A program made the position numbers and the translations under genes. Positions 6,750 through 53,450 of a stretch of 64,000 bases of DNA are shown piece after piece; positions within the stretch are counted from its first letter, which is position 1, and each line of letters begins with the position of its first letter. The DNA comes from Bacillota bacterium. Lineage in GTDB: Bacteria > Bacillota_I > Bacilli_A > ML615J-28 > CAG-698. The notes beneath the pieces were generated by a model. The model saw nothing but the letters and a program-made list of their open reading frames with translations. It had not been told where the DNA came from and made no database searches. The stretch covers positions 5,392-69,391 of the forward strand of contig JAEEHM010000063.1 of NCBI GenBank assembly GCA_016280895.1, read 5' to 3'.

Positions 6750-8253
6750 AGAAGATGAAATAAGGATAAGAAGAAAGATTGGGCAAGTAATATTTTGTGG
6801 TTTTAATGGCTATCAAATAAGTGAAAATTTAAAGAATTTAATTGATAAATATTATTTAGGTAATATAATCTATTTTACAAGGAATTATCAAAATCCAAAG
6901 CAAATGAAACAATTGAATAAGGATATTTATAGTTTAATAGAGAATAAAACAGGCTATATTCCTTTAACTGCAATTGACCAAGAAGGTGGCAATGTAACAA
7001 GAATGATGAATGATGTTACTTTTCCGCCATCACCAATGTCATGTAGTCAATCCCATATTGAATCTGCATGCTTTGAAATTGGAAAGATAATCGGAAGAGA
7101 TATGATTATGCTAGGCCTTAATTTGAATTTAGCACCTTGCTTAGATATTAACAGTAAAGATCCATATTATGCTAATATCAGACATTATTCATCTGATCCG
7201 GATGAGGTTTGTAAATACACTCATGATTTTATTAAAGGCTTATCATATTATGGTGTTTTATCTTGTTTGAAACATTTCCCTGGTGCTGGTGAAGATGTTG
7301 TTGATACACATTTTAATGCATCTATTCTTACAAGAAGTATCAAAGAAATAGAAGAACATGAATTAATTCCATTCAAATATAATATTGATAGTCCTTGTAT
7401 AATGACAACACATACTATCTTTAAAGCAATCGATGATTTACCATCAACCTTATCATCTAAGGTAATAAAAGGCTATTTACGCGATAAAATGAATTATCAA
7501 GGTATTGTTATTACTGATGCCTTAGAGATGAAAGCAATTGATGATTATTTTGGTGCTGTGAAAGCTTCACTTATGGCTTTAAATGCTGGTGCAGATATGA
7601 TTCTATGTTGTCATGATTATCAAGTTCAAGTAGATACATTTGAATATTTATATGATTGCGTAATAAATGGTTCTTTAAAGGAAAGTACACTTGATGAAAA
7701 AATAGAAAGAATAGCAAAATATAAGAATAAGCTAAGACCATATTTGGATAAATATTTTTATAATGAAGAAGAATATCAAGTAAGTATAGCTGCAAATGAT
7801 TTTTCATATCAAGTAGTAAAAGCATCATTTCAATTAATTAAGGGAATAATGCCAAGTTTAAAGAATAATACTCTATTTTTGGCACCGGAATTATACGCAA
7901 TTAATGGTGCTGAGGATGTTTTTGATGATCGTAGTCTTCCCCAAGCATTAAACGCTAATTTTAAGAATGATGTAATTGTGTTAGATAATAAGGAAAGTAC
8001 AAAGAATAAGATATTAAATTTGTTAGATAAATATGATTCAGTCATTGCGTTTTCATATAATGTTAATATTGATAAAGTTAATGTAGATATAATCAATGAA
8101 GTGAATAATAGAAAAAACACCTTTATTATTTCATTAAAGGGAATGATGGATATCAATTTGTATGATGATTTAAGAAATTATGCTGTTCTATATGAATATA
8201 GTCCTAATTCTATAAGAGTGCTAATTGAATTGTTGAAAAGACCAATTGATTAA
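6739..8253 (+). CDS. Glycoside hydrolase family 3 beta-N-acetylhexosaminidase (NagZ-like), cytoplasmic
   Basis: GH3 N-domain motifs 'KHFPGAGEDVVDTHF' and 'ITDALEMKAI'. No signal peptide. Overlaps the upstream gene by 11 nt. Confidence 0.7.
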   Translation: MVNKEDEIRIRRKIGQVIFCGFNGYQISENLKNLIDKYYLGNIIYFTRNYQNPKQMKQLNKDIYSLIENKTGYIPLTAIDQEGGNVTRMMNDVTFPPSPMSCSQSHIESACFEIGKIIGRDMIMLGLNLNLAPCLDINSKDPYYANIRHYSSDPDEVCKYTHDFIKGLSYYGVLSCLKHFPGAGEDVVDTHFNASILTRSIKEIEEHELIPFKYNIDSPCIMTTHTIFKAIDDLPSTLSSKVIKGYLRDKMNYQGIVITDALEMKAIDDYFGAVKASLMALNAGADMILCCHDYQVQVDTFEYLYDCVINGSLKESTLDEKIERIAKYKNKLRPYLDKYFYNEEEYQVSIAANDFSYQVVKASFQLIKGIMPSLKNNTLFLAPELYAINGAEDVFDDRSLPQALNANFKNDVIVLDNKESTKNKILNLLDKYDSVIAFSYNVNIDKVNVDIINEVNNRKNTFIISLKGMMDINLYDDLRNYAVLYEYSPNSIRVLIELLKRPID

Positions 8254-8268
8254 TTGGGCTTTTTTTAT
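8242..8268 (+). terminator. Putative terminator (AT-rich stem)
   Basis: ccaatt-gatt-aattgg hairpin spanning the stop codon, followed by GCTTTTTTTAT. Confidence 0.4.
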
Positions 8269-8303
8269 GTATACATATTTTTACATTCAAAACTATTATT
8301 TTG

Positions 8304-8312
8304 TGGTATAAT
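8304..8312 (+). promoter_or_regulatory. Extended -10 promoter element (TGgTATAAT) for the cobamide cluster
   Basis: TGGTATAAT sits 22 nt upstream of the ATG at 8334. The 80-nt leader is too short for a cobalamin riboswitch. Confidence 0.45.
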
Positions 8313-8333
8313 ATTAATATTAGAGGATACAAA

Positions 8334-9092
8334 ATGAAAAAAGAAAAATTATATATTTCCACAATAGCTACAAATGATCATGAGTTAGCACTTAATTATA
8401 ATCTAGGCTTAGAGATTGCTGAATATTGTACAGCATACAATATGGATGAGCATTTTGATGAAGTAAGTAAGATAGTCGAAGAAAAGATGAAGGGTATCAA
8501 TAGATTTACCTTCCATGCTCCATTCAATGAATTATGCCCTGCCGCAATTGATCCTAAAATTAAAGAAATTGCGTATATGCGTTATGAGCAAGCATTTAAG
8601 CTGGCTCGCACTTATCAAATAAAGCGCATTATTATTCATTCTGGCTACGTTCCAACTGTATATTTCAAATCATATTTTATCGAACAAGCAGTTGAATTTT
8701 TTAAAAAGATTCTTCAATTTATTGATGAAGATACTATAATATGCTTAGAAAATGTGATGGAAGATGAACCATTTATGCTTAAAGAAATTGTGGAAAAGGT
8801 AAATGATAAAAGATTTGGACTTTGTTTAGACATAGGACATGCTCATGTAGCATCTAAAATTGCTGTCGCAAAATGGTTGGAAGTTGATGCTAAATATATT
8901 TATCATTTCCACATTCATAATAATTATAAAAAATATGATGCTCATAATGGTTTAAGTAAGGGTAGTATCAATTTAAATAAGTTCTTTAAGTTAGCAAATA
9001 CTTTATGTGCTGATGCTACATATACCATTGAAAGCATTGATGCGAAAGATTCAATCGAATATTTAATAAAAAAGAAGATTTTGGAAGATTAA
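8334..9092 (+). CDS. Xylose-isomerase-like TIM-barrel (AP endonuclease 2 superfamily) protein; candidate CbiR-type cobamide remodeling amidohydrolase
   Basis: Sugar-phosphate isomerase/epimerase-like motifs ('IIHSGY', 'LCLENV', 'LDIGHAHV'). Start moved to ATG 8334 (RBS AGAGGA). Lies 2 nt upstream of cobT. Confidence 0.55.
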   Translation: MKKEKLYISTIATNDHELALNYNLGLEIAEYCTAYNMDEHFDEVSKIVEEKMKGINRFTFHAPFNELCPAAIDPKIKEIAYMRYEQAFKLARTYQIKRIIIHSGYVPTVYFKSYFIEQAVEFFKKILQFIDEDTIICLENVMEDEPFMLKEIVEKVNDKRFGLCLDIGHAHVASKIAVAKWLEVDAKYIYHFHIHNNYKKYDAHNGLSKGSINLNKFFKLANTLCADATYTIESIDAKDSIEYLIKKKILED

Positions 9093-9093
9093 T

Positions 9094-10194
9094 ATGGAAA
9101 AATATGAATTTATTGATCGTATAAAAGAAATAAAGAAAATAGATGAAAAAATATTAGCACAAGCAAAATTATATCAAGAAAGCCTTGCTAAACCAATTAG
9201 AAGCTTGGGTGGACTTGAAGAAATTGCAATTCAGATTGCTGGTATTAAAGGAAGCATACATTATGATTTTAATCGCTTTGCACTTATGGTATTCGCATCT
9301 GATAATGGAGTAGTAAAAGAAGGTGTTTCTTCAACTCCACAAAGTGTAACATATAGTCAAAGTATTAATCTTACAAGACATATTACTGGTGCGGCAACAC
9401 TTGCAGGGGAATTTGACTGTGATGTTAGGGTCTATGACCTTGGTGTTATCGGTGATACTTCAAAATCAAATGTCATTCAAAGAAAAATAAGAGAATCTAC
9501 TGATGATATTTTTTTAGGACCAGCAATGACAAGAGAAGAATGCATGAAAGCTATTCAAATTGGCTTTGATGCAATAAAAGATAATAAGGATAATTATGAT
9601 GCCTTCGCATTAGGTGAGATGGGAATTGGAAATACAACAACATCAAGCGCAATTATTGCTGCTTTGACTGGCCTTTCTGTTGAAGAAGTCACTGGAAAGG
9701 GTGCAGGTTTAAGCGAAGAAGCATATAAACATAAAATTGATGTTATAAAACACGCAATAAATATCAACAATGTCAACAAAGATGATGTTTATGATGTAGC
9801 ATCAAAGCTTGGAGGCTTTGATATTTGTGCACTTCTTGGTGCATATCTTGCTTGTGCATATTATCATAAGCTTGCAATTATCGATGGCTTTATATCAGCA
9901 ACAGCTGCATATCTAGCATTTCTTATAAATAAGGATGTTAAAGATTATATGATGGCATCCCATAAATCATATGAAATTGGTTTTATGAAGATAATGAAAG
10001 AGATGGATTTAAATCCATATTTGGATTTAAATATGCGCCTTGGTGAAGGTAGTGGTGCTGTACTTGCAATTTCTTTAATCAAAGCTGCATGTGCAATTGA
10101 AAATAAAATGGGTACATTTAAACAAGCAAACATTAATGACGATTATTTACAAGAATTAAAAATAGGTGACAAATTTAGCGTAAAGGAAAAATAA
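9094..10194 (+). CDS. cobT: Nicotinate-nucleotide--dimethylbenzimidazole phosphoribosyltransferase
   Basis: 'GEMGIGNTTTSSAI' signature; full-length CobT architecture. Confidence 0.85.
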   Translation: MEKYEFIDRIKEIKKIDEKILAQAKLYQESLAKPIRSLGGLEEIAIQIAGIKGSIHYDFNRFALMVFASDNGVVKEGVSSTPQSVTYSQSINLTRHITGAATLAGEFDCDVRVYDLGVIGDTSKSNVIQRKIRESTDDIFLGPAMTREECMKAIQIGFDAIKDNKDNYDAFALGEMGIGNTTTSSAIIAALTGLSVEEVTGKGAGLSEEAYKHKIDVIKHAININNVNKDDVYDVASKLGGFDICALLGAYLACAYYHKLAIIDGFISATAAYLAFLINKDVKDYMMASHKSYEIGFMKIMKEMDLNPYLDLNMRLGEGSGAVLAISLIKAACAIENKMGTFKQANINDDYLQELKIGDKFSVKEK

Positions 10195-10195
10195 A

Positions 10196-10732
10196 ATGAT
10201 AGTATTAGTAAGTGGCGGAGTCAAAAATGGAAAATCAACATATGCTGAAGAATTATGCTTGAAGCTTGCAAATGGGAATAAGCATTATTATTTAGCAACT
10301 ATGCTTCCATATGATGATGAAGATAGAAAAAGAGTGAAGAGACATCAAGAAAATAGAAAAGATAAAAACTTTGACACAATTGAAATTGCGTATGATATCA
10401 GCAAAGTTTTATCAATTAGTGATACTAATAGTACATATTTACTTGATAGTTTGACTGCACTTGTTTTAAATGAAATGTTTAAATATGAAAATAAACTATC
10501 AAATGATGAATTAACAAATAAAATCAACAATGATCTTGATGAACTATGTAAGAATGTAGATAATATCGTTATTGTCACTGATTATATATTTTCAGATGCC
10601 ATATATGTTAGTCAGTTCACTGAAGATTATTTGAAAATATTTGGAAGTGTTTCTTGCCACTTAGCGCAAATATCTGATTGTGTCATTGAATGTGTTTTAG
10701 GATGTCACAAATTTATAAAGGGGAAGATATAA
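10196..10732 (+). CDS. cobU: Adenosylcobinamide kinase / adenosylcobinamide-phosphate guanylyltransferase
   Basis: P-loop 'VSGGVKNGKST'. His-containing middle region 'KRVKRHQENR'. CobU-like C-terminus. Confidence 0.85.
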   Translation: MIVLVSGGVKNGKSTYAEELCLKLANGNKHYYLATMLPYDDEDRKRVKRHQENRKDKNFDTIEIAYDISKVLSISDTNSTYLLDSLTALVLNEMFKYENKLSNDELTNKINNDLDELCKNVDNIVIVTDYIFSDAIYVSQFTEDYLKIFGSVSCHLAQISDCVIECVLGCHKFIKGKI

Positions 10733-10733
10733 T

Positions 10734-11495
10734 ATGAAAAAATTATTTCATGCATTCTTTATGAGCTTAAGCTCTTTTACAAGAATTCCACCCTTATATA
10801 GAGGATGGGATGAAGAAGCAAAGAAATATATGCCACTGATGCTACCATTTGTGGGAGCAATTATCGGTGGATTATATTTCTTACTTGCATATTTATTACA
10901 TTTAACACAATTACCTAATATGTTAATTGCGTTATGCTTATTATTATTCCCTTATTTAATAACAGGCCTAATGCATATGGACGGTTTTTGTGATGTAGTT
11001 GATGCTAAAAATTCATATCGTAGCTTAGAAGAAAAAATAAGAATATTAAAGGATCCTCACATTGGTTCATTTGGCGTTCTATATGCAATATTCTTAATTC
11101 TTATCCATTTTGTGTTACTTTCAGTATTAGATGCAGAAACAAATTATTTATTCTTAATATTTATACCAATTACATCTAGAATAATGTCAGCATTATCACT
11201 TACATTATTTAAGAAAATATCGGTATCTGAGTATAATACAGAAGAAAACAAAAGCTTTAAAACATTTAAAATAATATATTTCATTATTTTATTAATTGCA
11301 GTACTTGCTATCCAATTTATTTTTACTAAATTATACGTGATTGTATCAGCAAGTATTATTGTTCTACATTTACTTGCAACATTAATCGCAAATCACGCAT
11401 TTAAAGGAATAAATGGTGATGTATCAGGATACGCAATTTCTATATCAGAAGCACTATCTTTAATAAGTTTAGTAATAATGCAGGTGATTATATGA
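10734..11495 (+). CDS. cobS: Adenosylcobinamide-GDP ribazoletransferase (cobalamin synthase)
   Basis: Polytopic membrane protein with the 'MHMDGFCDVVDA' CobS motif. Confidence 0.8.
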   Translation: MKKLFHAFFMSLSSFTRIPPLYRGWDEEAKKYMPLMLPFVGAIIGGLYFLLAYLLHLTQLPNMLIALCLLLFPYLITGLMHMDGFCDVVDAKNSYRSLEEKIRILKDPHIGSFGVLYAIFLILIHFVLLSVLDAETNYLFLIFIPITSRIMSALSLTLFKKISVSEYNTEENKSFKTFKIIYFIILLIAVLAIQFIFTKLYVIVSASIIVLHLLATLIANHAFKGINGDVSGYAISISEALSLISLVIMQVII

Positions 11496-11827
11496 TATTA
11501 ATTATTGGTGGCGCATATCAAGGTAAATTAGCATATGCGAAAGAAACATACAATTTAAAGGATGAAGACATTTGTGATGTAAAAGAAGGTCTTGATTTAC
11601 AAAAGAAATGTTTGTATCACGGAGAATATTTAGAATCAATTGATGATATTTTAGATGATTTAAAAGATAAGATTATCATTTTTGAAGATATTTTTTGTGG
11701 GCTTGTTCCAATTGATAAAGAGCTTAGATTGAATAGAGAAAAGAAAGCAATAATTGCAAGTGCATTAGCAAAACAAGCTGATAAGGTAATAAGAATTTAC
11801 TTATCAATTCCTGAGGTGTTAAAATGA
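11492..11827 (+). CDS. Miniature CobU-like protein (N- and C-terminal CobU segments only; degenerate P-loop)
   Basis: 'MILIIGGAYQGKLAYAKE' parallels the CobU P-loop but lacks the Ser/Thr after Lys. The C-terminus 'IFCGLVPIDKELRLNREKKAIIASALAKQADKVIRIYLS' parallels the CobU C-terminus. About 70 central residues, including the guanylyl-His region, are absent. 4-nt overlaps with cobS and cobC. Confidence 0.5.
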   Translation: MILIIGGAYQGKLAYAKETYNLKDEDICDVKEGLDLQKKCLYHGEYLESIDDILDDLKDKIIIFEDIFCGLVPIDKELRLNREKKAIIASALAKQADKVIRIYLSIPEVLK

Positions 11828-12402
11828 AAAGAGTATTTTTAATTAGGCATGGAGAAACCATGGCTAATATCAAACATCAATATTGTGGTTCATCTGATTT
11901 GAGTTTATCAGATGAAGGAAAAGAAAAATTAAAAGACTTGATCTCTTTATATGATGATGTATCAAAGGGTTCTATCTTTATTACATCAGGGATGAAGCGA
12001 GCAAATGAATCACTTAATATACTATTTGGTGATGTTAAAAAAGAAGAATATCCAGGATTAAAAGAAATGGACTTTGGTCCATTTGAACTTAAAACATATG
12101 AAGAATTAAAAGATGATAAGGAATATCAGCTTTGGATACAAGATACTTTCAACAACAAAATAAAAGGTGGAGAAAGTTTTGCAATTCAAAGAAAAAGAGT
12201 CTTATCCGCTTATGATGAGATTATTCAAAAATACAAGAACATTGATAAAGATGTGATTATTCTTGCTCATGGTGGCACAATCTTTCACATCATTGATAAT
12301 TTATTTAAAGAGGGAAAATATGTATATGAAATTCAACCTGCATCAGGACATGCATATGTAATTGATTATACAAAAGAAAAAATATTTTACGAAAAGAGAT
12401 AA
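11824..12402 (+). CDS. cobC: Alpha-ribazole phosphatase (histidine phosphatase family)
   Basis: 'LIRHGET' catalytic RHG motif, and position in the cob operon. Confidence 0.65.
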   Translation: MKRVFLIRHGETMANIKHQYCGSSDLSLSDEGKEKLKDLISLYDDVSKGSIFITSGMKRANESLNILFGDVKKEEYPGLKEMDFGPFELKTYEELKDDKEYQLWIQDTFNNKIKGGESFAIQRKRVLSAYDEIIQKYKNIDKDVIILAHGGTIFHIIDNLFKEGKYVYEIQPASGHAYVIDYTKEKIFYEKR

Positions 12403-12409
12403 AGAACAT

Positions 12410-14194
12410 ATGAAAAAATTATTATTTTCCTTAATTATATTTATTGTTGTTTTTATGTTTGGCTGTAATAATAATAAAACATGTACAATAGATGCAGAAA
12501 ATGTTGACGTATTAGTTGGAGAAAGTTATAAACTTTCCTTAAACACAAATGTGAAAAATCCCCATTTTGTGTATGAAATAGATAATAATATCATTGAAAT
12601 AAAAGATGATGTAATCTACGCAAAAGAAATAGGAATCGCAAATGTAGATGTATCTGTGAAGAATCACGAAGGCAAAGCATCATTTGTGGTAAGAGTATGT
12701 CAAGAAGGACTTACAATATTTGGTTTACATGAACAAGTAATTTTAGAACACCAACAATTAGATTTAGTAAGATTTGGTGTTGATGAGGAAGAGCATATTA
12801 CTTGGAGAAGTAGTAATATTGATGTGGCACGTGTTTCAAATGGTGAGGTTATTCCTAATGGTTTAGGAAAAACTACTGTCACTGCAAAGACTGATATTTA
12901 TTCAGCGACATTTGAACTTGAAATTATTCGCCCAATGCCAAGTGATGTAGAAACAAAGACTGAACTTAGATTTGAAGAATCTTCAAAATATAGTATTGAA
13001 TATAATGTGTTACCAGAATATGCTTTACAAGATGTTAAAATTATTTCATCTAATGATAATTTAATTGTGAATGATGATAACACAATCCTTGCAAACAAAA
13101 AGGGTAGTGCTACATTATCTATTTCCCCTTTAAGCAATGATTCAATTGTGAAAGTAGTAAATGTTGAAATATTTGAAAATAAAGCTCCTGTATTTGAATA
13201 TACAGATGATTATCAAGAAGAATTAGAAATTAATTATAATGATAAAGAAGCACTACTAACAGGTATTAAAGCTATTGATAATGTTGATGGTGATATTACA
13301 GATAAAATCGAATTTGATAATAATCTTATTTGTACATATGGTCGTCAAGAAATAACATTAAAGGTAAAAGATAATAGTGGTAATGTTAGTACAATAAATA
13401 GAATCGTCGATGTAAAATGGAATTACCATACTAAATTTATTGGCCATAGTGGTTCATATTATGGAGTTCCTAATACTGAGGCTGCTTTCTTATATGCTGC
13501 TAAGAACTTACATTATCAAGCATTAGAGTGTGATTTACAAGTTACAAAAGATGGTGTTTATGTAACCAACCATGATTCATTTATTGGTGATTTTGTGATT
13601 AGTGAACATACATATGCTGAACTTCAAGAAATTACCTTGACACGTACCAATTCTGGTTATATTAAATCCTTAGGTCTTGATACAACAGAAAAATACGAAA
13701 GTAAGGTATGTACCTTAGAACGTTATTTAGAAATCTGCAAAACATATGGTTGTGAAGCAGTTATAGAAATAAAAGGATCATCACCTGGACTTTCTAGTTC
13801 AAGTCAAGCAGGAATGCAAAGATTAGTTGATTTTGTGAAAGAAAAAGGAATGTGGGATGACACAATCTTTTTAACATCAACTGTTGCTTGTTTAAAATGG
13901 CTTAGAAATAATGGCTATAATGATGTAAGATGTCAATATTTAGTTAGTTCATGTGAAAGCCAAGATGTATTAAATACATGTATTGAATACAATTTTGATC
14001 TTAGTACTAATGTAACATATGGTGGACCTAATAGTGATGAGTGGCTACAAAAATACCATGATGCTGGTCTTGAAATATCTGTTTGGACTTTTGATATTTA
14101 CACAAAATATGAAGTAGGACAAGCATGGATTGACAAGGGTGTTGAATATATTACCTGTGATTGGTATGTAATGGAAGAAATGAATTTAAAATAA
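12410..14194 (+). CDS. Surface lipoprotein with three Big_2 Ig-like domains, a DUF5011-like Ig domain and a C-terminal glycerophosphodiester phosphodiesterase (GDPD) domain
   Basis: Lipobox 'VFMFGC'. Big_2-like repeats. GDPD motifs 'FIGHSGSYYGVPNTEAAF...ECDLQVTKDGVYVTNHD'. Start moved to ATG 12410. Confidence 0.7.
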   Translation: MKKLLFSLIIFIVVFMFGCNNNKTCTIDAENVDVLVGESYKLSLNTNVKNPHFVYEIDNNIIEIKDDVIYAKEIGIANVDVSVKNHEGKASFVVRVCQEGLTIFGLHEQVILEHQQLDLVRFGVDEEEHITWRSSNIDVARVSNGEVIPNGLGKTTVTAKTDIYSATFELEIIRPMPSDVETKTELRFEESSKYSIEYNVLPEYALQDVKIISSNDNLIVNDDNTILANKKGSATLSISPLSNDSIVKVVNVEIFENKAPVFEYTDDYQEELEINYNDKEALLTGIKAIDNVDGDITDKIEFDNNLICTYGRQEITLKVKDNSGNVSTINRIVDVKWNYHTKFIGHSGSYYGVPNTEAAFLYAAKNLHYQALECDLQVTKDGVYVTNHDSFIGDFVISEHTYAELQEITLTRTNSGYIKSLGLDTTEKYESKVCTLERYLEICKTYGCEAVIEIKGSSPGLSSSSQAGMQRLVDFVKEKGMWDDTIFLTSTVACLKWLRNNGYNDVRCQYLVSSCESQDVLNTCIEYNFDLSTNVTYGGPNSDEWLQKYHDAGLEISVWTFDIYTKYEVGQAWIDKGVEYITCDWYVMEEMNLK

Positions 14195-30185: not shown

Positions 30186-31076
30186 ATGCAAAAAAAACCA
30201 GTAGTAGCAATAATGTATGACTTTGATAAAACACTATGTACTACCGATATGCAAGATTATTCATTTATACCAAGTGTTAATATGACAGCTCCTGATTTTT
30301 GGGGATTAACAAAAGAATTCACTGATAAATATCAAGTTGAAAAAATATTAGCTTATATGTATATTATGATTAAGACTGCAAAGGATAACAATATTAAATT
30401 AACAAAATCTTTTCTTAAGAAGATGGGTGAGAATATTGAATATTTTCCTGGTGTTATCGATTGGTTTAAAAACATCAATGCGTATGGAGAAAGCTTAGGA
30501 GTTAAGGTTGAACATTATGTTATCTCTTCAGGTACTAAAGAAATCATCGAAGGCAGCAAAATCGCTAAAGAATTTACGCAAATATTTGGTTGTGAATTCC
30601 ACTTTGATAAAGATGAGGATGGCGATTTAGTTGCATCATGGCCTAAACTTACAATCAATTACACTCAAAAAACGCAATTTGTGTTTAGAATTAGTAAGGG
30701 TGTAAAGAAGATAACTGAAGATGATAAGGTTAATATGCGTATGGATAAGGAACAAAGACATGTTCAATATCAAAATATGATTTATATTGGCGATGGAATT
30801 ACTGATATCCCATGTATGCAACTTGTGAAAGACAAGGGTGGAATATCAATTGCGGTATTCAATAATAAAAAGAAAATTAATGCGAAACAATTATTTAAAG
30901 ATGATCGTGTTAACTTTATTTGCGAAGCTAATTACGAAGAAGGTAGTGAAATGAGTAATATTGTGAAAGATCAAATTACAAGAATAGCTATCAGTGAAAG
31001 ATTAGTCAAAGAAAAATTAAAACAGGTTAAGAAATATGGAAAACCTGATGTAAAGGAAGTAAAACAAAATGTTTAA
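30186..31076 (+). CDS. HAD-superfamily hydrolase
   Basis: Motif I 'YDFDKTL'; motif IV 'IGDGITDIP'. RBS AAAGGAGG. Confidence 0.6.
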   Translation: MQKKPVVAIMYDFDKTLCTTDMQDYSFIPSVNMTAPDFWGLTKEFTDKYQVEKILAYMYIMIKTAKDNNIKLTKSFLKKMGENIEYFPGVIDWFKNINAYGESLGVKVEHYVISSGTKEIIEGSKIAKEFTQIFGCEFHFDKDEDGDLVASWPKLTINYTQKTQFVFRISKGVKKITEDDKVNMRMDKEQRHVQYQNMIYIGDGITDIPCMQLVKDKGGISIAVFNNKKKINAKQLFKDDRVNFICEANYEEGSEMSNIVKDQITRIAISERLVKEKLKQVKKYGKPDVKEVKQNV

Positions 31077-31476
31077 AAAGGCAGATAAAAATGAATTAAA
31101 AACTTGGTTTTTCGGATCAGTATTGATGTTTATCATCTCATTACTTGTTGGTATTATCCAAGTTGGTAATATTATTCAAAATGGATTTTCAGTAGGTTCA
31201 TTAATACTTGCAATTATCTTCTTAGGTCTTGCTTTATTGTTTGCGATGTTCATAATTAGAATTATTCAAGCATATCGTACATATGATGTTAGAAAGCTAG
31301 AACGTGAACAAAAAGAAAGAGAAGAAAAAGAAAAAGAAGAAGAAATGTTAAGATTAAAGCATGAACAAGAAAAGAATGAGATGGAAGAAATTAGAAGAAG
31401 AGAAGCTGAAAAGCAAAGAATTAATATGGAAGAATTAGCTAAGACTAAGGAAGCCAAGGAAGAAGAGGAAGAATAA
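31069..31476 (+). CDS. Small membrane protein with a charged E/K-rich coiled-coil tail
   Basis: Two TM helices, then 'EREQKEREEKEKEEE...KEAKEEEEE'. 8-nt overlap with the upstream gene and 1-nt overlap with the downstream gene. Confidence 0.45.
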   Translation: MFKKADKNELKTWFFGSVLMFIISLLVGIIQVGNIIQNGFSVGSLILAIIFLGLALLFAMFIIRIIQAYRTYDVRKLEREQKEREEKEKEEEMLRLKHEQEKNEMEEIRRREAEKQRINMEELAKTKEAKEEEEE

Positions 31477-33597: not shown

Positions 33598-34395
33598 TTA
33601 TTTGATTGATGCATGATATAGCACATTATCTAATCTTACTGGTTGAAGATTTTCATCAATACCATATACTTGATTATTAAATGTGTCATCAACCATTAAG
33701 CCAGATGTTCTAAATGTACCAGTGAAATCAACTGTAAATAATGTTGTTTCTTCACTAATTACATCACTTAACATAATTGTTGCTATTACATAATCATCTT
33801 TTATTTCAAAATCAAAGATACCATTTAGATTTGCGTTCTTAAGTGCATTAGAAATTGTCATTACATCTTTATTGCACTTATATTTGAATTGTAGTGCTTT
33901 AACGCCACTTGATTTTTCAAGAATGAAATTAATCTTGTTTTGGTTTAAATCACGGATAGCTTTTATTACAGCACCATGTGAACCATCTTTATTTAAGTCT
34001 TGGTCTAATAATGCAGAATCTACTAGGTGAACAATATAATTCATGCCAAATAATTCACCATTCCATTCATAAACGATATAGATTCTTGGATTACCTGCTT
34101 TTTTAAGCTTATTTAAATCTGATTCTTCCAACATTGATTCTTCAAGTGGAACAACTCTACTTGTATTATCAGTATATGTTACTAAGAACTTAACCATATC
34201 AAGAGTAAACTCATCATATTCAAATCTTTGTTCTTGATATTCTTCAATTGCACTTATTTCATATACTCTCTTACTTGACCAATCTATTTCAGGATCATTT
34301 TTATCATCAGGTGTTTTATCCTTACCACACGCAAATAGGGAAATAGATAAGATAAGAGTGAAGATAAATATAAATATTTTCTTTAAATTATTCAT
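33598..34395 (-). CDS. Lipoprotein of unknown function
   Basis: Lipobox 'SLFACG'. AGGAGG RBS overlaps the upstream gene's stop, so the two genes are co-transcribed on the minus strand. Confidence 0.6.
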   Translation of the reverse strand: MNNLKKIFIFIFTLILSISLFACGKDKTPDDKNDPEIDWSSKRVYEISAIEEYQEQRFEYDEFTLDMVKFLVTYTDNTSRVVPLEESMLEESDLNKLKKAGNPRIYIVYEWNGELFGMNYIVHLVDSALLDQDLNKDGSHGAVIKAIRDLNQNKINFILEKSSGVKALQFKYKCNKDVMTISNALKNANLNGIFDFEIKDDYVIATIMLSDVISEETTLFTVDFTGTFRTSGLMVDDTFNNQVYGIDENLQPVRLDNVLYHASIK

Positions 34396-39779: not shown

Positions 39780-40421
39780 TTATTGTTTTTTATATTTAAT
39801 TGCGTTTAAGATATTAAACACAATTGTAATTATTACTGTCACTAAAGCAACAATAATAAGTTTAATACTAAACTTATTTTCAAAAAGTACTGAAATAAAA
39901 CTAATTCCATAATTAAGGATAAATGCATAAAAGATAAATGCAAATATGATAATTGTACAAGCAAGAACTTTATTTAAAATTTTGTACTTGCTTAAATATA
40001 AAGCATAAAAGCTACCAATTGAGAAACATGCAATATGAATTAAGCCATTCACAATTAATAAAACTAATAATGAACTTGTTGCTACATATTGAACAATAGC
40101 ATTTTGTGCTATGAATAATAATTCAACAAAGCAAACATTTATTAGATTAAAGATTAATGATGATAGCCAGAATGTATGTTTATCATGCTTTAGTGAATCA
40201 TATGATCTACCTACTACAGTGAAATTATAATAACCATAGAAGAAGGAATATACAAATTCAATTAAGAAATATGATACAAAAGTTGTAATAACTAGAGCTC
40301 TAAAATCAGGAATTACTTTCGGAATAAGTTCTAATATTACACAAACTACACAAAATACTAAATTAAGTAGAAATGGTAATAGACAAGACTTCAATTGAAG
40401 TTTTATTGTTTGTAGTAACAT
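39780..40421 (-). CDS. Polytopic membrane protein (ABC-2-type permease-like, about 6 TM)
   Basis: 213 aa, highly hydrophobic. Its RBS AAAGGAGA is embedded in the last codons of the upstream ATPase-like gene, indicating translational coupling. Confidence 0.5.
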   Translation of the reverse strand: MLLQTIKLQLKSCLLPFLLNLVFCVVCVILELIPKVIPDFRALVITTFVSYFLIEFVYSFFYGYYNFTVVGRSYDSLKHDKHTFWLSSLIFNLINVCFVELLFIAQNAIVQYVATSSLLVLLIVNGLIHIACFSIGSFYALYLSKYKILNKVLACTIIIFAFIFYAFILNYGISFISVLFENKFSIKLIIVALVTVIITIVFNILNAIKYKKQ

Positions 40422-40422
40422 A

Positions 40423-41307
40423 TTACATTTTCTCCTTTATTTCTCTTAAATTGATTAAATAAATGAAGATGTTGTGAACAGGAACTTCAGATATTTTAAT
40501 TAAGTATTTTTGGAACTTTCTTATTTCGTCCTTTGAAAGCTTTTGGTGAACACAAACTGTTAATGTTTTTCCTCTTTCTTCAACTCCAAGCATTTTTACA
40601 CCTGCAAGTAAGGATTTTAATACTTCGGTTTTTCCACTTAGATAACGGAAATTTGCTTTTATTTCTTCCATTGTGAAATGTGCAAATAAACTTCCCTTAT
40701 CAAAGAATAATACTTTATCAATTAAATATGCGATTTCATCTACAAAAGTAGTAGAAATGATAAAAGTACGTGGATATATTTCATGATGCTTGTATAAGAA
40801 GTTAAAATAATCATATCTATCTTTAATATCAGCCTCAGATAGAGGATTCTCAAAGATAGTTACATTAGCTCTACTTGCAAGTCCTAAAATACCAATGAAG
40901 ATTGATTTTTTGGATTTATTTAAAGAACTATATGTAGTTTTTAATTCAATACCAAAATGTTTGATTAATTCATATGCATAAGCAGTATCCCATTTAGGAT
41001 AAAAATCAGACATAATCTTAAATATTTGGCTGATCTTCATAGTAAGTGGGAAGGTAGTATCTTTCGCAATAAAACAAATTCTTTCATTCATTTCATTGTT
41101 GCCGAAAAGAAGCTCTCCATCAATCCATACATTTCCTTCATCAGCCTTATTCTTAGCACAAATAAGATTTAGAAGTTCATGTTGATAATATTCATTCTTT
41201 TCAACAAGTGCATATATTTGATTATCTAAAAAATTGTAGGAAAAGTTTTTAATGATATTTTCGTTATTACTTTTTTTAACTAAGTTTTCGCAAATTAAAA
41301 CACTCAT
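40423..41307 (-). CDS. ABC-transporter ATP-binding-fold protein with degenerate Walker A, signature and Walker B (predicted non-catalytic)
   Basis: The ABC NBD collinear pattern is retained ('...WIDGELL...', 'LNKSKKSIFIGILGLASRANVTIFENPLSEAD'). The Walker A position reads 'EKNEYYQHE'. The LSGGQ position reads 'LNKSK'. The Walker B position reads 'IFENP'. Confidence 0.5.
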   Translation of the reverse strand: MSVLICENLVKKSNNENIIKNFSYNFLDNQIYALVEKNEYYQHELLNLICAKNKADEGNVWIDGELLFGNNEMNERICFIAKDTTFPLTMKISQIFKIMSDFYPKWDTAYAYELIKHFGIELKTTYSSLNKSKKSIFIGILGLASRANVTIFENPLSEADIKDRYDYFNFLYKHHEIYPRTFIISTTFVDEIAYLIDKVLFFDKGSLFAHFTMEEIKANFRYLSGKTEVLKSLLAGVKMLGVEERGKTLTVCVHQKLSKDEIRKFQKYLIKISEVPVHNIFIYLINLREIKEKM

Positions 41308-44822: not shown

Positions 44823-47800
44823 ATGAAAAGTAAAATATTATTGAAACGTACTTTGCCTATTATTATCGCATTATTTGTGATAGTAGTGGTAGCCCTTGTA
44901 GCTACAGTGGTAACTTTAGATAAAAAGACACCTAGCTTATCAAAGGCATTAGGAGAAGAAAACTATTTAACATACACAAATAATGGTGTTACTATCTCCA
45001 TGACAAATAATGATGTATATGACTTATTACGTGATACAAGTTATGGTGCATCATCAACTGTCACTCAATTAGTTCGTATGATCGATGAAGGTCTATTAAC
45101 TAATGGAGAAAAGAATTATTTAAATTCTGTTGATAATGAAAAGGTAAGAGAAAGACTTGAATATGCAATTCTTGGCTATGAATTTGCTGATTATCAAAAA
45201 GCAAATAAAACAAGCTTTGAACTTGCAGCTAAAAAAGCAAACAAGACATTCGATGAATATCTTGCTGACAAAATTGCAGATCTTATCAAAGAATTTAGTG
45301 ATAATTTCTTAACTGCAAATGGTATCAAAGTAGAAGCTGACGATATTACATTCGATAGCACTAAGATTACTTGCAAAACTACTGCTGATGTTTTTAAATA
45401 TTATGCATTAGAAGAAGCTAAATATTTATATGCTAGAGATTATTTAGAAAAGACATATTCTGAAGATTTAAAAGCATATGCTGAATATTTAGAAGCTAAA
45501 GAAGCATATGATAAATATACAGCTGCTCTTGCTAGATATGAAGCTGACTTAGCTAAATGGAAGGAAGCAAACAAAAAGACTCGTGGTGATAAACCAGTTA
45601 AGAATGATTACATTTCTTTATACACTGTAAGAGAAGAACCAAAAGAAGTTAGTGCTCCTGCTATTACTGAAACTACAGTTTCTAACAAATATGCTAGCAA
45701 CAATGTAGATAAATTCTGGGCTGTTGTTATTAATTATTCTTCAGTAGCTGCTGCTAAAACAGCATTAAGTCAAAATGGTTATATCTTTGAAGATAATAAA
45801 TTTAAAACAAGTGCTGGTGTAGAATTAACAGATGATGAAGTAGTTCAAATGTACATTAAGCTTTATAATCAATATTATCAAAACTTAGGTAAAGATGCAT
45901 TAACTACTGCTGCATTCACTCCTGATTGGACTGATGAAGATAGTGAATTCTATTTCACTGCATCTGATTTATTATCTCGTGGTATTTACTCTAAGAATTC
46001 TACTAACAATGTGTATAATTATGAAAGTGGTTATGCTTATAATGACAAATTAACTTCTTGCTTATACTTAGTTGTTGCTAGAAATAAGGCTAATACTTGG
46101 GATGAATATCTAAAAGCACAAGATAAGAAATATTATGAAACTGAATTTTATACTTCAGTACTTGCTGAATTATTAGATGATGCTACAAATGCAACATTTA
46201 TTAACAAAGCACTTGCTACTTTAAGAGCAGATTCTGATTTATTAATTTATGATACAGTTTTAGAACAACTTTATATGGCTGCATATGAATCAGATTATAA
46301 AGCTACTAAGAAGTCTTCTTCAAGTGCTGTTGCATCTTATAAGGTAAATGGTAAGAAGTATGAAATTAGTGCTGATGATTTGTTCAAAGCACTTGCTAAT
46401 ACACAATATGGCGTTTCATCTTTCATGTATAAATATCAATACAATTGGATGTTCTTAGAAGCTACTGATAAAGATGGTAACTTATTAAATAAATATGTTG
46501 ATTATAAAGCATATTTAGAAGGCACATCATACAAGAAAGCATCTAAGGATGAAACAATGTATAAAGATGCTAAAGCATATGTTGACAACTTAAAGACTAA
46601 CTTCAAGGCTAATGCTTATGCTAATGAAGATGGTTCTGGTTACAACAAGAAATATGGTTGGGAAGCATTCATTCGTGATTATTATTATGATAATTACAAT
46701 GTTGAATTAAAGAATGAAGATGATTTAATGGTCTTCTATGTATATCAAAAATTAATGGATGAATACCAAGCATCAGTTACAAAGATTACTTTAGATACAT
46801 GGGAAAATGTATATAAGATTTATATGGCTAAAACTGCTAGTGAATACATGAGTATTTCAGCAGAAGAATTATACATCAAATTATTTGATGCTAAAGGTAG
46901 TAAGGTTGATCCTATTAATTGGACAGCTGAACAAGTTGCAAAAGCAAAAGCTTTATATGATGAAGTATTATCTGCATTAACAAAGATTCAAGAAAGTGAA
47001 ATTTCTGCTTTCTTAAGCGGTTTGGAAACTGCATTTGATAATGCTCCTAAGGCTATTGATGGTGCTTACACTGGTGATTATGCATACAATTATGTTTATA
47101 ATGTAGGCGATGGAACACAAATTACAATCAATGTTTCTGAATATAAATCATATGGCTTTGATGTAACATCTACATCTGCAACATTCACTAATACAAGCGG
47201 TGATGCTTACTTAAAATATGCTGCACGTCAAGTTTGGAAGAGCTTAATGGGCGAATTAATTAATGGTAAAGCTGTATCTGAACTTGTTGTTTATGATACA
47301 ACATTCACTCCAAAAGATTATTATGGCATTGGTAATGGTAATTACTTAGCTGCTTCTGAAGGTTTCGTAGTATTAGCATTTACAAGTGCAAACTACTCTT
47401 CATATTTCAAGACAGTTGGTACAACATCAGCTTCATCTGAAGCAAAGACGAGAATCCATGCTTTAATGGCTTCTTATGAAGAATTACATGCTGGTGATGC
47501 TGGCTTTGAATCATTCGAAAAATTATATGCTGAATGGGTTAAGGCTGATGATAAGACTGCTAGTGAAGCTAAGATTTTAGATGTATTTAAGACTAAATTA
47601 GCTCTTGATGATGTAAGTGCATTTACAGATGTTGAAGATTTCTTCACTACATATGTAAATGATAGAATCGCATTTATTGCATTCCCTGAACTTCAATATG
47701 TATTAATGTATCTATACGATCAATCAAAGAAAAACGAAGATGATTATGTATCACTTAGTGATTTATATAGTGATTATAAAGATGCACTAAAAGATAATGA

Positions 47801-48422
47801 AGGCTTAGATGCTGCAAAAGAAGCAATTATGAAGATTGTTGATAAATATATTAATGATTCTTCATTAAATGTTGAATTCCCAACATTTGATGCATTCTTA
47901 CCTTACTTAAAGAATTATGCTGATTCTGATACATCTGCTTATTATAAAGCAAGTGTAACAAATTGGTTCACAACTTATTCTTCAAGTAATTCTACATTAG
48001 TTTATGGCAATTTTGCATCAACAACTTATGCTAATAGAGAAATGTTTAAGACATTACTTGCTAACTTAAATGCTAATTTCCAAGCAAGTGAAACAGTTAA
48101 AGATGTTATGAATAAATTAGTTGAAACATCAATTGATAATGCTACAAGTTCATTAACTTATTTAGCATTCACAAATGGTGATAAAGCTGCAGTTGAAAGC
48201 TTATTAAATGCCGTTCTTGCAATTAAAGATTTCGACTTAAGCGATGAAAATGTATTAGATGTATTATTTACTTATGGTAATGAGTACAGTGCTGAAAAAA
48301 CAACTTTCACAGCAGTTATGGGTGCTTTAAGCACATATGCAAAAGCTCAATATAATGCTTTAAATGCAGAAGATAAAGCAGAACTTGCTGATCTTGCTAC
48401 AGCTGCTGGTTTAGTTGATTAA
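44823..48422 (+). CDS. Giant (1199 aa) N-terminally membrane-anchored extracytoplasmic protein, paralog 1; SurA_N/PpiD-like region after the TM. Function unknown.
   Basis: Short cytoplasmic N-terminus, one TM ('LPIIIALFVIVVVALVATVVTL'), then 'NGVTISMTNNDVYDLLRDTSYGASSTVTQLVRMIDEGLL' (SurA_N-like). Ala/Tyr/Lys/Asp-rich. RBS AAGGAGAG. Confidence 0.7.
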   Translation: MKSKILLKRTLPIIIALFVIVVVALVATVVTLDKKTPSLSKALGEENYLTYTNNGVTISMTNNDVYDLLRDTSYGASSTVTQLVRMIDEGLLTNGEKNYLNSVDNEKVRERLEYAILGYEFADYQKANKTSFELAAKKANKTFDEYLADKIADLIKEFSDNFLTANGIKVEADDITFDSTKITCKTTADVFKYYALEEAKYLYARDYLEKTYSEDLKAYAEYLEAKEAYDKYTAALARYEADLAKWKEANKKTRGDKPVKNDYISLYTVREEPKEVSAPAITETTVSNKYASNNVDKFWAVVINYSSVAAAKTALSQNGYIFEDNKFKTSAGVELTDDEVVQMYIKLYNQYYQNLGKDALTTAAFTPDWTDEDSEFYFTASDLLSRGIYSKNSTNNVYNYESGYAYNDKLTSCLYLVVARNKANTWDEYLKAQDKKYYETEFYTSVLAELLDDATNATFINKALATLRADSDLLIYDTVLEQLYMAAYESDYKATKKSSSSAVASYKVNGKKYEISADDLFKALANTQYGVSSFMYKYQYNWMFLEATDKDGNLLNKYVDYKAYLEGTSYKKASKDETMYKDAKAYVDNLKTNFKANAYANEDGSGYNKKYGWEAFIRDYYYDNYNVELKNEDDLMVFYVYQKLMDEYQASVTKITLDTWENVYKIYMAKTASEYMSISAEELYIKLFDAKGSKVDPINWTAEQVAKAKALYDEVLSALTKIQESEISAFLSGLETAFDNAPKAIDGAYTGDYAYNYVYNVGDGTQITINVSEYKSYGFDVTSTSATFTNTSGDAYLKYAARQVWKSLMGELINGKAVSELVVYDTTFTPKDYYGIGNGNYLAASEGFVVLAFTSANYSSYFKTVGTTSASSEAKTRIHALMASYEELHAGDAGFESFEKLYAEWVKADDKTASEAKILDVFKTKLALDDVSAFTDVEDFFTTYVNDRIAFIAFPELQYVLMYLYDQSKKNEDDYVSLSDLYSDYKDALKDNEGLDAAKEAIMKIVDKYINDSSLNVEFPTFDAFLPYLKNYADSDTSAYYKASVTNWFTTYSSSNSTLVYGNFASTTYANREMFKTLLANLNANFQASETVKDVMNKLVETSIDNATSSLTYLAFTNGDKAAVESLLNAVLAIKDFDLSDENVLDVLFTYGNEYSAEKTTFTAVMGALSTYAKAQYNALNAEDKAELADLATAAGLVD

Positions 48423-48434
48423 GGAGTGATAGAT

Positions 48435-51400: not shown

Positions 51401-52214
51401 CAACAATGGTACTAATACATATTTAGCTACTACATTTGGTCTTCATGTATACGTAAATCAATCTTCTGATTTAAGTGCTTACTTTACTACAAATGCTGAT
51501 GGTGATAAGGTATTTACTGAAATTCCTGACATCAAATATGTTCAAATGTATGTATATGATAAGAACGAAGCAAATGAAGAAGATTATGTAGCACTTGCAA
51601 CTTTATATAAAGATTATAAAGAAGCAAAAGAAGATAATGATGAAAAGAGAACTGCTGACTTAAAAGCAAAGATTGAAGCAGCAAATGAAAAATTAGGCTT
51701 TGGCTTATCATTTGATGAATTCTATGCTTTACTTGAAGAATATGCTGGCGATAATGCAAGCTATGTTAGCACTCAACTTTCAACATACTTCACAGTTTAT
51801 AGCCAAGCATCACAAACTTCAAATGCAAGTTATTCAATGGTATTTGGTGATTATGTAAGCTCTACATATTATCATTTATGTTACATGAGTGACTTCTTAG
51901 ATAAGATTAATGCTTCTAAAGTTAGCCTTGCTGATGGTGATGAATTCAAGTCATTACTTAAAGATTATGTTGGCTACTTCAAAGATACATATTATAAATC
52001 ATTTGCGTCAGCAAATTATTTAGATGGTAACGCTGAAGGCTTAGAAGGATTATTAGATGCTTTAGCATGTGTTAAGGGCGTAACAGCTTATGACAATGTG
52101 GCAGGAAGCGCTATGACTGCACTTAAGAATTTTGCAACTAGTGCATACAATGCATTATCAGCTGAAGATCAAGCTAAGTTAGATGCAAAAGCTACTGCTG
52201 CAGGAATTAAATAA
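48435..52214 (+). CDS. Giant (about 1259 aa) N-terminally membrane-anchored extracytoplasmic protein, paralog 2
   Basis: Collinear homology with the upstream gene, for example 'KFWAIITSFDSQAKAEEAL' vs 'KFWAVVINYSSVAAAKTAL', and 'YTSDYKANKKSSKTVLASYEVNGTKKEITVDAL' vs 'YESDYKATKKSSSSAVASYKVNGKKYEISADDL'. Start at ATG 48435, 8 nt after AAGGAG. Confidence 0.7.
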   Translation: MNSKSIFKRILPILIALVVILIAAIVGAIVTSAKKVPGFSDKTYGKEAFITYTTADGTEIKLSRNEVYNALRGTSSEQSVITSTTVNEILNLVDADLLADYVSNVNENDVFELIAKAVFSSTLDSYIKTNEDTFKVEAHKEGKAYRTYLNEKIDEKIKEFVDSLKYSYGFEGAVSEFSYKNDSNEYYYVQENGADKLDDDGEKIYQLKVATNSKVYAYYALEQARTDYAKKLIKEEYEEDFKAYLQYLEDLEAYNDYLEAVSDYEEALADWKNTKDGSKPKKSDYYTSKVSEPAVVEEPLNGALDEDAIKKLYEEDNYAKFWAIITSFDSQAKAEEALLQYGVVIAENASGDNRWFHYGVTDFAGASAEDKALIAAYNFTTKGDTTVITDDDYYNLLTTDEELYNKDAAKTSTEKTGLVLATKENPDSRTGAYELTEAEVKDIIVKLYNQNNQYDASKQLTNADYDPSATDATYDENSKLYYTESKLTSLGLYSKGTSSNKFYKFSDSSTFENAEIYTNAIISSNSKYYIYLILDKKDDVEDWDDYLDGKKYYESQIYLDNKDELLEDQATATYTKKAIAKLRLANNIKFYDEILEANYMANYTSDYKANKKSSKTVLASYEVNGTKKEITVDALWAKLAPYYGVYATVDLIQYEWVFLEAADADGKLFNQYVDYNKYLSGKKLSKCILDNDKAKKMYENVSNYVENVKYYFSVGYYESYGYPSSYGWKNFINDYYATYYNVRLNNVDDLKLFFINQQIITEYSNYVSKVTAENWEKAYLTYAGKTLSEYINTKGIHLLISLPDVEKNEKNNSSSNFLDPTKWTDAQLAAAEELYDAVLALLAQVDESEISTVLNGIVTAFDNAPLPLTDGTTPNISYTKETLGGTEVVDYLFDYKYEYYKDGALAPLASIDVAKYKAMGFKLTCEDLTVTTGTMVSEFEDAVRQIWNSQLDKLVVDGSNSDVVIYDHTFTAPEYKNYNEETSAESVVNNNGTNTYLATTFGLHVYVNQSSDLSAYFTTNADGDKVFTEIPDIKYVQMYVYDKNEANEEDYVALATLYKDYKEAKEDNDEKRTADLKAKIEAANEKLGFGLSFDEFYALLEEYAGDNASYVSTQLSTYFTVYSQASQTSNASYSMVFGDYVSSTYYHLCYMSDFLDKINASKVSLADGDEFKSLLKDYVGYFKDTYYKSFASANYLDGNAEGLEGLLDALACVKGVTAYDNVAGSAMTALKNFATSAYNALSAEDQAKLDAKATAAGIK

Positions 52215-53419: not shown

Positions 53420-53450
53420 CAAAAGCACCTCATTTGAGGTGCTTTATTCT
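53420..53450. terminator. Bidirectional terminator
   Basis: aaagcacctc-attt-gaggtgcttt followed by ATT; convergent genes. Confidence 0.8.

Follow-up and report, generated by a model that had tools for sequence, protein, structure and literature searches.

Here we describe a six-gene operon for nucleotide-loop assembly of cobamides, found at positions 8334-12402 (+ strand) of a 64,000-nucleotide stretch of DNA from a Bacillota bacterium (contig JAEEHM010000063.1; the whole stretch is called the window below), which is probably a self-contained module for exchanging the cobamide lower ligand. Its first gene encodes a triosephosphate isomerase (TIM)-barrel protein from the superfamily of apurinic/apyrimidinic (AP) endonuclease 2, and we propose that this protein is CbiR-like. 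To our knowledge, a single phosphodiesterase family of this kind, CbiR, has been characterised so far, in Akkermansia. CbiR of Akkermansia muciniphila (Amuc_1679) is a cobamide-remodelling phosphodiesterase (Mok et al. 2020, PMC7733943). It splits cobamides into cobinamide-phosphate and alpha-ribazole and is sensitive to oxygen and EDTA; residues such as D228 have been mutated in it. With somewhat less than even confidence, we further suggest that the TIM-barrel proteins represent a second, unrecognised family of cobamide-cleaving phosphodiesterases in hundreds of species of Oscillospiraceae and other Clostridia from the guts of humans and animals, encoded in a fixed cassette which often has a dedicated feed by an energy-coupling factor (ECF) transporter, and in which CobU activity may be divided between a full-length CobU in which the C-terminal motif is replaced and a mini-CobU of 110-120 amino acids that provides this motif.

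The operon consists of six co-oriented, tightly packed genes:

8334-9092, + strand: TIM-barrel protein, 252 amino acids; PF01261, E 3.6e-20, 73 bits versus a gathering score of 31

9094-10194, + strand: cobT, 366 amino acids; PF02277, 386.6 bits; TIGR03160, 377.8 bits, over the cutoff of 319.3

10196-10732, + strand: cobU, 178 amino acids; PF02283, 105 bits

10734-11495, + strand: cobS, 253 amino acids; PF02654, 143.5 bits

11492-11827, + strand: mini-CobU, 111 amino acids; PF02283, 21.5 bits, under the gathering score of 27

11824-12402, + strand: cobC-like histidine phosphatase, 192 amino acids; PF00300, 106 bits

The spacings between these genes are, in order, 1, 1, 1, -4 and -4 nt, and the six genes are thus regarded as translationally coupled. 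CobU, CobS and CobC score over their Pfam thresholds and CobT over its equivalog cutoff. By these profile matches, the product of cobT is assigned as nicotinate-nucleotide:base phosphoribosyltransferase, that of cobU as a full-length adenosylcobinamide kinase/cobinamide-phosphate (Cbi-P) guanylyltransferase and that of cobS as cobamide-5'-phosphate synthase (adenosylcobinamide-GDP ribazoletransferase). The cobC product, whose top NCBIfam match is TIGR03162 (ribazole_cobC; 109 bits, under the cutoff of 162.9), is a probable alpha-ribazole-phosphate/cobamide-5'-phosphate phosphatase.

An earlier note, made from the letters of this DNA, had described the same six open reading frames (ORFs) as a nucleotide-loop salvage operon with a TIM barrel of the AP-endonuclease-2 type at its head. 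The coordinates, the Pfam and NCBIfam matches and the spacings all agree with this description, apart from the gap between the TIM gene and cobT, which was given as 2 nt and is 1 nt. The further claim that corrin-ring genes are missing from the window is likewise borne out: when every other ORF of 100 amino acids or more, excluding those nested in a longer opposite-strand ORF, was scanned with Pfam, the 64 kb yielded neither cbi/cob ring genes nor a BtuFCD-type transporter or B12-dependent enzyme. The remaining ORFs with Pfam matches encode housekeeping, DNA-repair and surface proteins only; the GC content of the window is about 29%. These scans cover the 64 kb, whereas the inference of the note that the organism probably salvages or remodels cobamides instead of making B12 de novo concerns the genome as a whole. 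Finally, the leader ahead of the TIM gene is indeed 80 nt long (8254-8333) and devoid of a recognisable cobalamin riboswitch, as the note had it. Hereto, Rfam searches yielded no family over its gathering score anywhere in the window, and for the leader nothing credible even at E ≤ 10.

We infer the substrate, the cleaved bond and the physiological role of the TIM enzyme as follows. The protein would be a cytoplasmic metal-dependent phosphodiesterase acting on an imported, complete cobamide, in which it would hydrolyse the P-O3' bond between the aminopropanol phosphate and the alpha-riboside, yielding Cbi-P and setting free the alpha-riboside that carries the unwanted base. The ribose 3'-O would serve as leaving group, with the same bond polarity with which endonuclease IV (Endo IV) cuts 5' to an abasic site. 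Subsequently, the guanylyltransferase activity of CobU would convert Cbi-P to Cbi-GDP, CobT would make the alpha-riboside phosphate of the preferred base, CobS would join the two and CobC would strip the 5'-phosphate. The downstream genes would also permit plain cobinamide salvage.

The association of the TIM gene with cob genes is conserved across many species. In a scan with one genome per species, 282 genomes carry a relative of the TIM protein, and gene neighbourhoods were counted for the best 80 loci of these genomes by tblastn with the six window proteins. Nearly all of these loci belong to metagenome-assembled genomes of gut Clostridia (Oscillospiraceae, Faecousia, Sporobacter, Christensenellales and others), and two are labelled Synergistaceae. 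At about 57 of the 80, cob genes lie immediately 3' of the TIM gene on the same strand; 42 of these, with full flanks, contain the entire set of cobT, cobU, cobS, mini-cobU and cobC, and among the cob-linked loci two are without cobT and a few without a match to cobC. The TIM gene is arranged head-to-head with the cob operon at eight loci. Ten show no cob gene within the available flanks, and about five are too short to judge, so that the TIM gene adjoins cob genes in about 65 of the 75 informative species genomes. Since dozens of species-level genomes show this gene order and the genes flanking the cassette are unrelated from genome to genome, the arrangement is far beyond chance. In a neighbour-joining tree the orphan TIM members fall among the cob-linked ones and hence do not form a separate functional subfamily. 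Conversely, the cob operon exists without a TIM gene in other genomes, which identifies the TIM gene as an optional head on a core nucleotide-loop module. Such optional occurrence is what one would predict if remodelling had been added onto a basic assembly pathway.

In two different clusters (50% identity) the TIM protein is fused to CobT. The protein P0177, 619 amino acids in length, combines a TIM barrel with a complete CobT and is encoded in a cassette in which CobU, CobS and mini-CobU follow; P0171, from the other cluster, is a TIM-CobT fusion as well. Moreover, an ECF transporter is encoded 5' of the TIM gene on the same strand at 28 of the 72 loci with enough upstream sequence (examples are L009, 3859-7004; L084, 4375-6990; and L096-L098). 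It comprises a tandem ATPase and an S-component of PF07155/PF12822, which are sometimes united in one fused protein of 871 amino acids, and at 16 of the 28 loci the gene for the S-component extends up to or into the TIM start codon. Candidates for the transported substrate are corrinoids, lower-ligand bases and alpha-ribazole. Among the more distant members of the family, P0201 adjoins an S-component-like gene and a gene for a DUF4430 protein, a domain that we take to be of the B12-binding type. Seven loci contain a small Cys-rich ORF of PF04071, which at six of them either comes next after the TIM gene or lies between this gene and cobT. ORFs of this zinc-finger-like type, about 88 amino acids long, were seen at L096 (2353-2619) and also at L040, L054, L057, L058, L063, L066 and L075. 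The window cassette has neither an ECF transporter nor a PF04071 ORF.

Two further neighbourhoods deserve mention in their own right. At the P0015 loci of Oscillospiraceae (L002-L005, 6649-7839, + strand) a 396-amino-acid protein of PF01996 (F420-0:gamma-glutamyl ligase) is encoded about 160 nt 5' of the TIM gene on the same strand. The locus L086 lies on an 861-kb record of Vescimonas fastidiosa (NZ_AP023416.1, pMM35_01) labelled as a plasmid, in which the core ribosomal-protein/secY/rpoA operon is located directly 5' of the cassette; a chromid or a chromosomal segment is a likelier identity for this replicon than a plasmid. The cassette of L086 is without cobC and is followed by an ABC transporter of the NMT1/THI5 type.

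To assess the chemistry of the TIM protein, its metal-binding residues were mapped by hhalign of the family profile to E. coli Nfo (whose sequence is identical to that of the structure 1qtw) and by HMMER alignments to the Endo IV structures of M. tuberculosis and S. aureus. Nine residues, H61, H102, E139, D166, H169, H193, D202, H204 and E233, correspond in this order to the Nfo ligands H69, H109, E145, D179, H182, H216, D229, H231 and E261. None of the nine positions varies among the 118 close homologues, and among 118 distant representatives their conservation is 91-100%. Isomerases and epimerases of the TIM fold use only the equivalents of E145, D179, H216 and E261. The five additional invariant residues (H61, H102, H169, D202 and H204) correspond to the two further metal sites of Endo IV and therefore point to a trinuclear phosphoesterase of the Endo IV type. 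Judged from these residues, the metal site is in keeping with hydrolysis of a phosphodiester rather than isomerisation of a sugar.

The AlphaFold 2 (AF2) model of the TIM protein has a predicted local distance difference test (pLDDT) score of 94.9, and its Foldseek neighbours in the PDB are all members of the TIM-barrel superfamily, with the uncharacterised proteins MJ1311 (3wqo) and TTHB071 (3ayv) nearest, followed by a mix of epimerases and Endo IV. The modelled fold alone would thus leave the chemistry undecided, and it is here that the ligands help. The closest solved structures, both by sequence and by Foldseek (TM 0.72-0.79), are MJ1311, deposited as "D-tagatose 3-epimerase-like protein", and TTHB071 (3ayt/3ayv). 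In MJ1311 the His/Asp/Glu motifs match across the whole alignment; those of TTHB071 match within its aligned region, which ends before the last Glu. When the family profile was compared with PDB sequences, MJ1311 scored 109 bits, TTHB071 44 bits and two Endo IV entries 35 and 24 bits. Neither of the two closest structures was retained as a functional guide. TTHB071 was considered as a structural proxy from a cob context, but surE lies after its gene, and the closest cob gene is found about 5 kb off, on the opposite strand; for MJ1311, a fragment gave much the same scores with the epimerase, CbiR and Endo IV models.

The data also bear on the possibility that the TIM protein is a sugar or sugar-phosphate isomerase or epimerase, which might act on the ribosyl moiety of the lower-ligand nucleotide. 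Databases, where they name members of the family at all, use "sugar phosphate isomerase/epimerase" or "TIM barrel protein" (the latter is the RefSeq name in cultured Vescimonas fastidiosa MM35), the epimerases retrieved by Foldseek reach E values of about 1e-8, similar to Endo IV, and a fructoselysine 3-epimerase model is weakly matched by 59 of 150 family representatives (best E 2.4e-11). However, the names are generic, Pfam-level labels, and epimerases appear in the PDB profile search only at E > 0.009, all ranked beneath the Endo IV entries. Comparison with isomerase/epimerase clades had been proposed in the earlier note as a check; among the NCBIfam models, none of this type matches the window protein at E ≤ 0.01. 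Together with the five ligands at metal sites that isomerases lack, this makes an isomerase or epimerase extremely unlikely.

We next consider how closely the TIM protein is related to CbiR. Its sole Pfam family is PF01261 (AP endonuclease 2/xylose-isomerase-like), and its top NCBIfam match is the CbiR model NF041277 (39.3 bits, E 5.1e-10). The alignment is near-colinear, pairing protein residues 42-242 with model positions 46-245 of 249, and the domain is accordingly equal in size to CbiR. NF041277 matches 134 of the 150 family representatives and is both the commonest and the strongest NCBIfam model among them. Endo IV models follow as the second commonest (86 of 150 representatives); for the window protein they rank after CbiR with E ≥ 6e-5. 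The family itself is large: a word-indexed search returned 1,205 homologues of the TIM protein, and an exhaustive profile search 526 clusters at 50% identity with E ≤ 1e-30 and 2,055 with E ≤ 1e-10. The nearest match among species-level genomes shares 54% identity with the window protein, and a match with 98% identity is present in the Logan assembly of SRR27787412.

Several observations weigh against a CbiR-like function. The 39.3 bits of the window protein fall short of the equivalog cutoff of NF041277, which is 105 bits, and by NCBI's rule the protein is therefore not CbiR. Ten sampled family members score between 32 and 56 bits, and none of the 150 representatives reaches the cutoff, the best of them (E 5.4e-24) attaining about 85 bits as estimated from the E-value/bit scale of other matches to the CbiR model. 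The comparison with CbiR runs through this profile and the published survey rather than residue by residue. The linkage to cob genes weakens in distant members of the family, as for P0233, which has none. The nine-ligand site would equally fit a DNA AP endonuclease or a phosphomonoesterase. In one lineage (L037, 6495-7001, and L046) a gene of the uracil-DNA glycosylase (UDG) family directly adjoins the TIM gene, a TIM-RecQ fusion is encoded on one metagenomic contig of 4.6 kb (L091, 1853-4513), and MJ1311, the nearest solved structure, has been catalogued as its organism's predicted homologue of Endo IV (PMC2770678).

Accordingly, the proposal of the earlier note that the TIM protein is a candidate CbiR-type enzyme holds in part. 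Its closest curated family is CbiR, and the cob linkage and the TIM-CobT fusions speak for a related role, but the score excludes it from CbiR proper, so that "CbiR-type" should be read as "CbiR-like". On these profile scores, the TIM barrel belongs to a distinct sister family to CbiR, related but separate, which probably works like CbiR, i.e. as a predicted cobamide phosphodiesterase.

A different group of proteins was noted alongside. The Geobacterales TIM barrels P0271-P0390, 255 amino acids long and all annotated as sugar phosphate isomerases, are under the CbiR threshold yet closer to the cutoff than the family of the window. One of them, encoded on plasmid pIAE1 of Trichlorobacter lovleyi (L087, 5824-6591), scores 75.6 bits on the CbiR model; at this one locus examined the TIM gene has no cob neighbours and adjoins a potassium channel gene and galE. 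A tblastn search among annotated plasmids returned no record named CbiR.

The last of the points listed above would be accounted for if the TIM protein were a compact, Endo-IV-like AP endonuclease of DNA repair that merely shares the cob operon. Such an enzyme would possess the full nine-ligand Endo IV site and match Endo IV models, as more than half of the representatives do. On the other hand, the window protein scores only 22.4 bits on the Endo IV model TIGR00587, for which the cutoff is 129.65, and it is about 30 residues shorter than Endo IV, with hhalign gaps in three loop regions. The two hints from gene context are narrow: the UDG linkage is confined to one Christensenellales-like lineage (2 of 72 loci), and the RecQ fusion, which adjoins a gene for an RNase T-type exonuclease, to its single contig. 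No other hints of DNA repair were seen at the loci. Adjacency to cob genes in most informative genomes, the CobT fusions in two clusters and the coupling to ECF S-components likewise argue against a repair enzyme, which we consider very unlikely.

Synteny, fusions and the transporter demonstrate a link to the pathway rather than the bond that is cleaved. The TIM enzyme might thus belong to the nucleotide-loop pathway and act on another phosphoester, such as alpha-ribazole-5'-phosphate, cobamide-5'-phosphate, Cbi-GDP or a precursor that the ECF transporter brings in, in salvage or proofreading. Endo IV enzymes are known also as 3'-phosphatases and 3'-diesterases, the TIM protein is outside the curated CbiR family, and it could substitute for CobC in those cassettes in which cobC is absent (Vescimonas and L090) or gives no match (L015, L042 and L045). 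However, CobC accompanies the TIM protein in most cassettes, including the 42 complete ones, so that redundancy would be the rule; the occurrence of the operon without a TIM gene argues against an essential core step; and the closest characterised family by profile is CbiR, no phosphatase. We therefore regard action on another phosphoester as unlikely and favour the cleavage of complete cobamides.

Apart from the profile score, the proposed cobamide-cleaving enzyme resembles CbiR in being an AP-endonuclease-2 TIM barrel of about 250 residues, and in the co-oriented position of its gene beside cobT, cobU, cobS and cobC, often near a transporter; metal-binding His, Asp and Glu residues are probably common to both. 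The reaction predicted for it, from cobamide to Cbi-P and alpha-riboside, would suit the downstream genes exactly. For comparison, 25% of cbiR homologues adjoin transporters (PMC7733943). In contrast to CbiR, the family of the window is centred on Oscillospiraceae and other gut Clostridia, a different phylum, and heads a fixed six-gene cassette that includes mini-CobU. The survey of Mok et al., based on BLAST from Amuc_1679, comprised 282 homologues, mostly from Chlorobi, Chloroflexi and Proteobacteria; Table S1 of that study contains few Firmicutes, all with weak E-values and none adjoining cob genes (PMC7733943), and the Clostridia family was thus evidently missed. In the literature on CbiR we found no coverage of this family, and nothing relevant on an association of TIM barrels with cob genes in Clostridia.

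With Endo IV (Nfo; 1qtw, 5zhz, 8axy) the TIM protein shares the fold, all nine ligands of the trinuclear site and, as proposed here, phosphodiester hydrolysis with a sugar 3'-O leaving group; it differs in that its context, one lineage excepted, is cobamide assembly and not DNA repair. The N-terminal thirds of the two do not align. A functional parallel is provided by CbiZ (adenosylcobinamide amidohydrolase), the second enzyme dedicated to cobamide remodelling, which also trims an imported cobamide to an intermediate that the nucleotide-loop enzymes rebuild and is often linked to transport. Unlike the TIM protein, CbiZ has an unrelated fold and cuts an amide to give cobyric acid, which then needs CbiB and CobD, both of which are absent from the window cassette.

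Besides the TIM gene, the cassette carries a conserved second derivative of CobU. The mini-CobU family comprises at least 666 proteins, typically of 120 amino acids, which annotation pipelines name as the full bifunctional enzyme. In Salmonella CobU (1c9k), only residues 1-18 and 120-180 are covered by the profile of this family. About 100 central residues are therefore missing, the guanylyl-His region among them, and the P-loop (GGAYQGKL) is degenerate, without Ser/Thr, the first strand being kept. Measured against CobU/CobP (1cbu, 1c9k, 7tm8, 9vio), mini-CobU shares the core fold, the first strand, the position of the P-loop and the C-terminal GxVP...R.[FW]R..GR motif; it lies below the Pfam gathering score and has neither an intact Walker A motif (GxxxxGK[ST]) nor the region of the guanylyl-His. 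The AF2 model of mini-CobU has a pLDDT of 94.4, and its significant structural matches are CobU structures only. Mini-CobU is found in nearly all cassettes and also in operons without a TIM gene; it is thus a conserved accessory of such operons.

The full-length CobU of the cassettes is itself a variant. Aligned to solved CobU, the window protein shows GGVKNGKS as its P-loop and, within RVKRH, a conserved His, and 63 full-length orthologues from cassettes keep the P-loop and the His of RIRRH, which we take to be the guanylylated His. In the same 63 cassettes a conserved SDYIYSDA replaces the canonical C-terminal NEVGxGxVP of CobU, whereas mini-CobU retains a C-terminal motif, DIFCGVVP...R.WR..GR. 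The two proteins carry complementary parts of the canonical CobU signature, and, unlike CobU/CobP, mini-CobU always accompanies a full-length CobU bearing SDYIYSDA. CobU is a trimer. Given the complementary halves of the signature and this trimeric state, a mixed CobU/mini-CobU oligomer may be envisaged, which at present is a guess from sequence. A truncated CobU paralogue did not turn up in our literature search, in which nothing relevant was found. Together, mini-CobU and this CobU variant offer a well-defined problem of structure and function in a long-studied enzyme.

Upstream of the TIM gene the following elements were recognised:

8242-8266, + strand: hairpin CCAATT/AATTGG with a 4-nt loop, followed by GC and seven T (tentative)

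8304-8312, + strand: extended -10 element TGgTATAAT (tentative; read by eye, absent from the pattern scan)

8322-8327, + strand: ribosome-binding site AGAGGA, 6 nt ahead of the ATG at 8334 (read from the sequence)

The ATG at 8334 is favoured as start codon over the upstream TTG at 8301 because of this ribosome-binding site and the conserved N-terminus of the homologues. No good -35 hexamer is present at 17 nt from the -10 element, TTTACA (8280-8285) being 21 nt off, and because of this poor -35 region the promoter did not appear in the pattern scan; transcription from it would tentatively give a 5' untranslated region of about 15-20 nt. The hairpin, which overlaps the stop codon of the upstream GH3 gene, was likewise missed by the pattern scan, as its stem holds just two G-C pairs. 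This weak, terminator-like structure may, again tentatively, insulate the cassette from upstream transcription. Riboswitches 5' of the cassette were found neither in the window nor in nine relatives. Cobalamin riboswitches of about 90 bits are present at L012 (11921-12129, - strand) and L018 (11926-12133, - strand), on the opposite strand and about 1 kb past the end of the cassette, where they would control other genes.

Downstream of cobC, with about 8 nt between its stop codon and the next gene and no terminator called between them, the window encodes a protein, secreted or at the surface, that combines Ig-like domains with a glycerophosphodiester phosphodiesterase (GDPD) domain (12410-14194, + strand). 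This gene may be co-transcribed with the cassette; it is not kept beside the cassette in other genomes. Elsewhere in the window, two adjacent giant ORFs of 1199 and 1262 amino acids (44823-48422 and 48426-52214, + strand) match no Pfam-A family at E ≤ 1e-4. The same applies to the ORFs at 53450-55027, 33598-34395, 39780-40421, 40423-41307 and 63209-63664 (all - strand) and at 31069-31476 (+ strand).

In conclusion, the gene content and conserved order of the cassette, the composition of the metal site and the relationship to CbiR argue for cobamide remodelling in these gut Clostridia, for which we found no earlier description and which probably functions like CbiR-based remodelling. A TIM barrel with the nine Endo IV ligands that heads a cobT-cobU-cobS-mini-cobU-cobC set provides an annotation rule for such modules, and Vescimonas fastidiosa MM35, a cultured carrier of the cassette, offers a test organism. 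Cobamide structure decides which gut microbes use which B12 analogue, and remodelling enzymes shape who depends on whom and which analogues accumulate. If the proposed function is true, lower-ligand remodelling would be common in a dominant gut lineage and no speciality of Akkermansia, and this would alter genome-based predictions of cobamide salvage and dependence for that major lineage.

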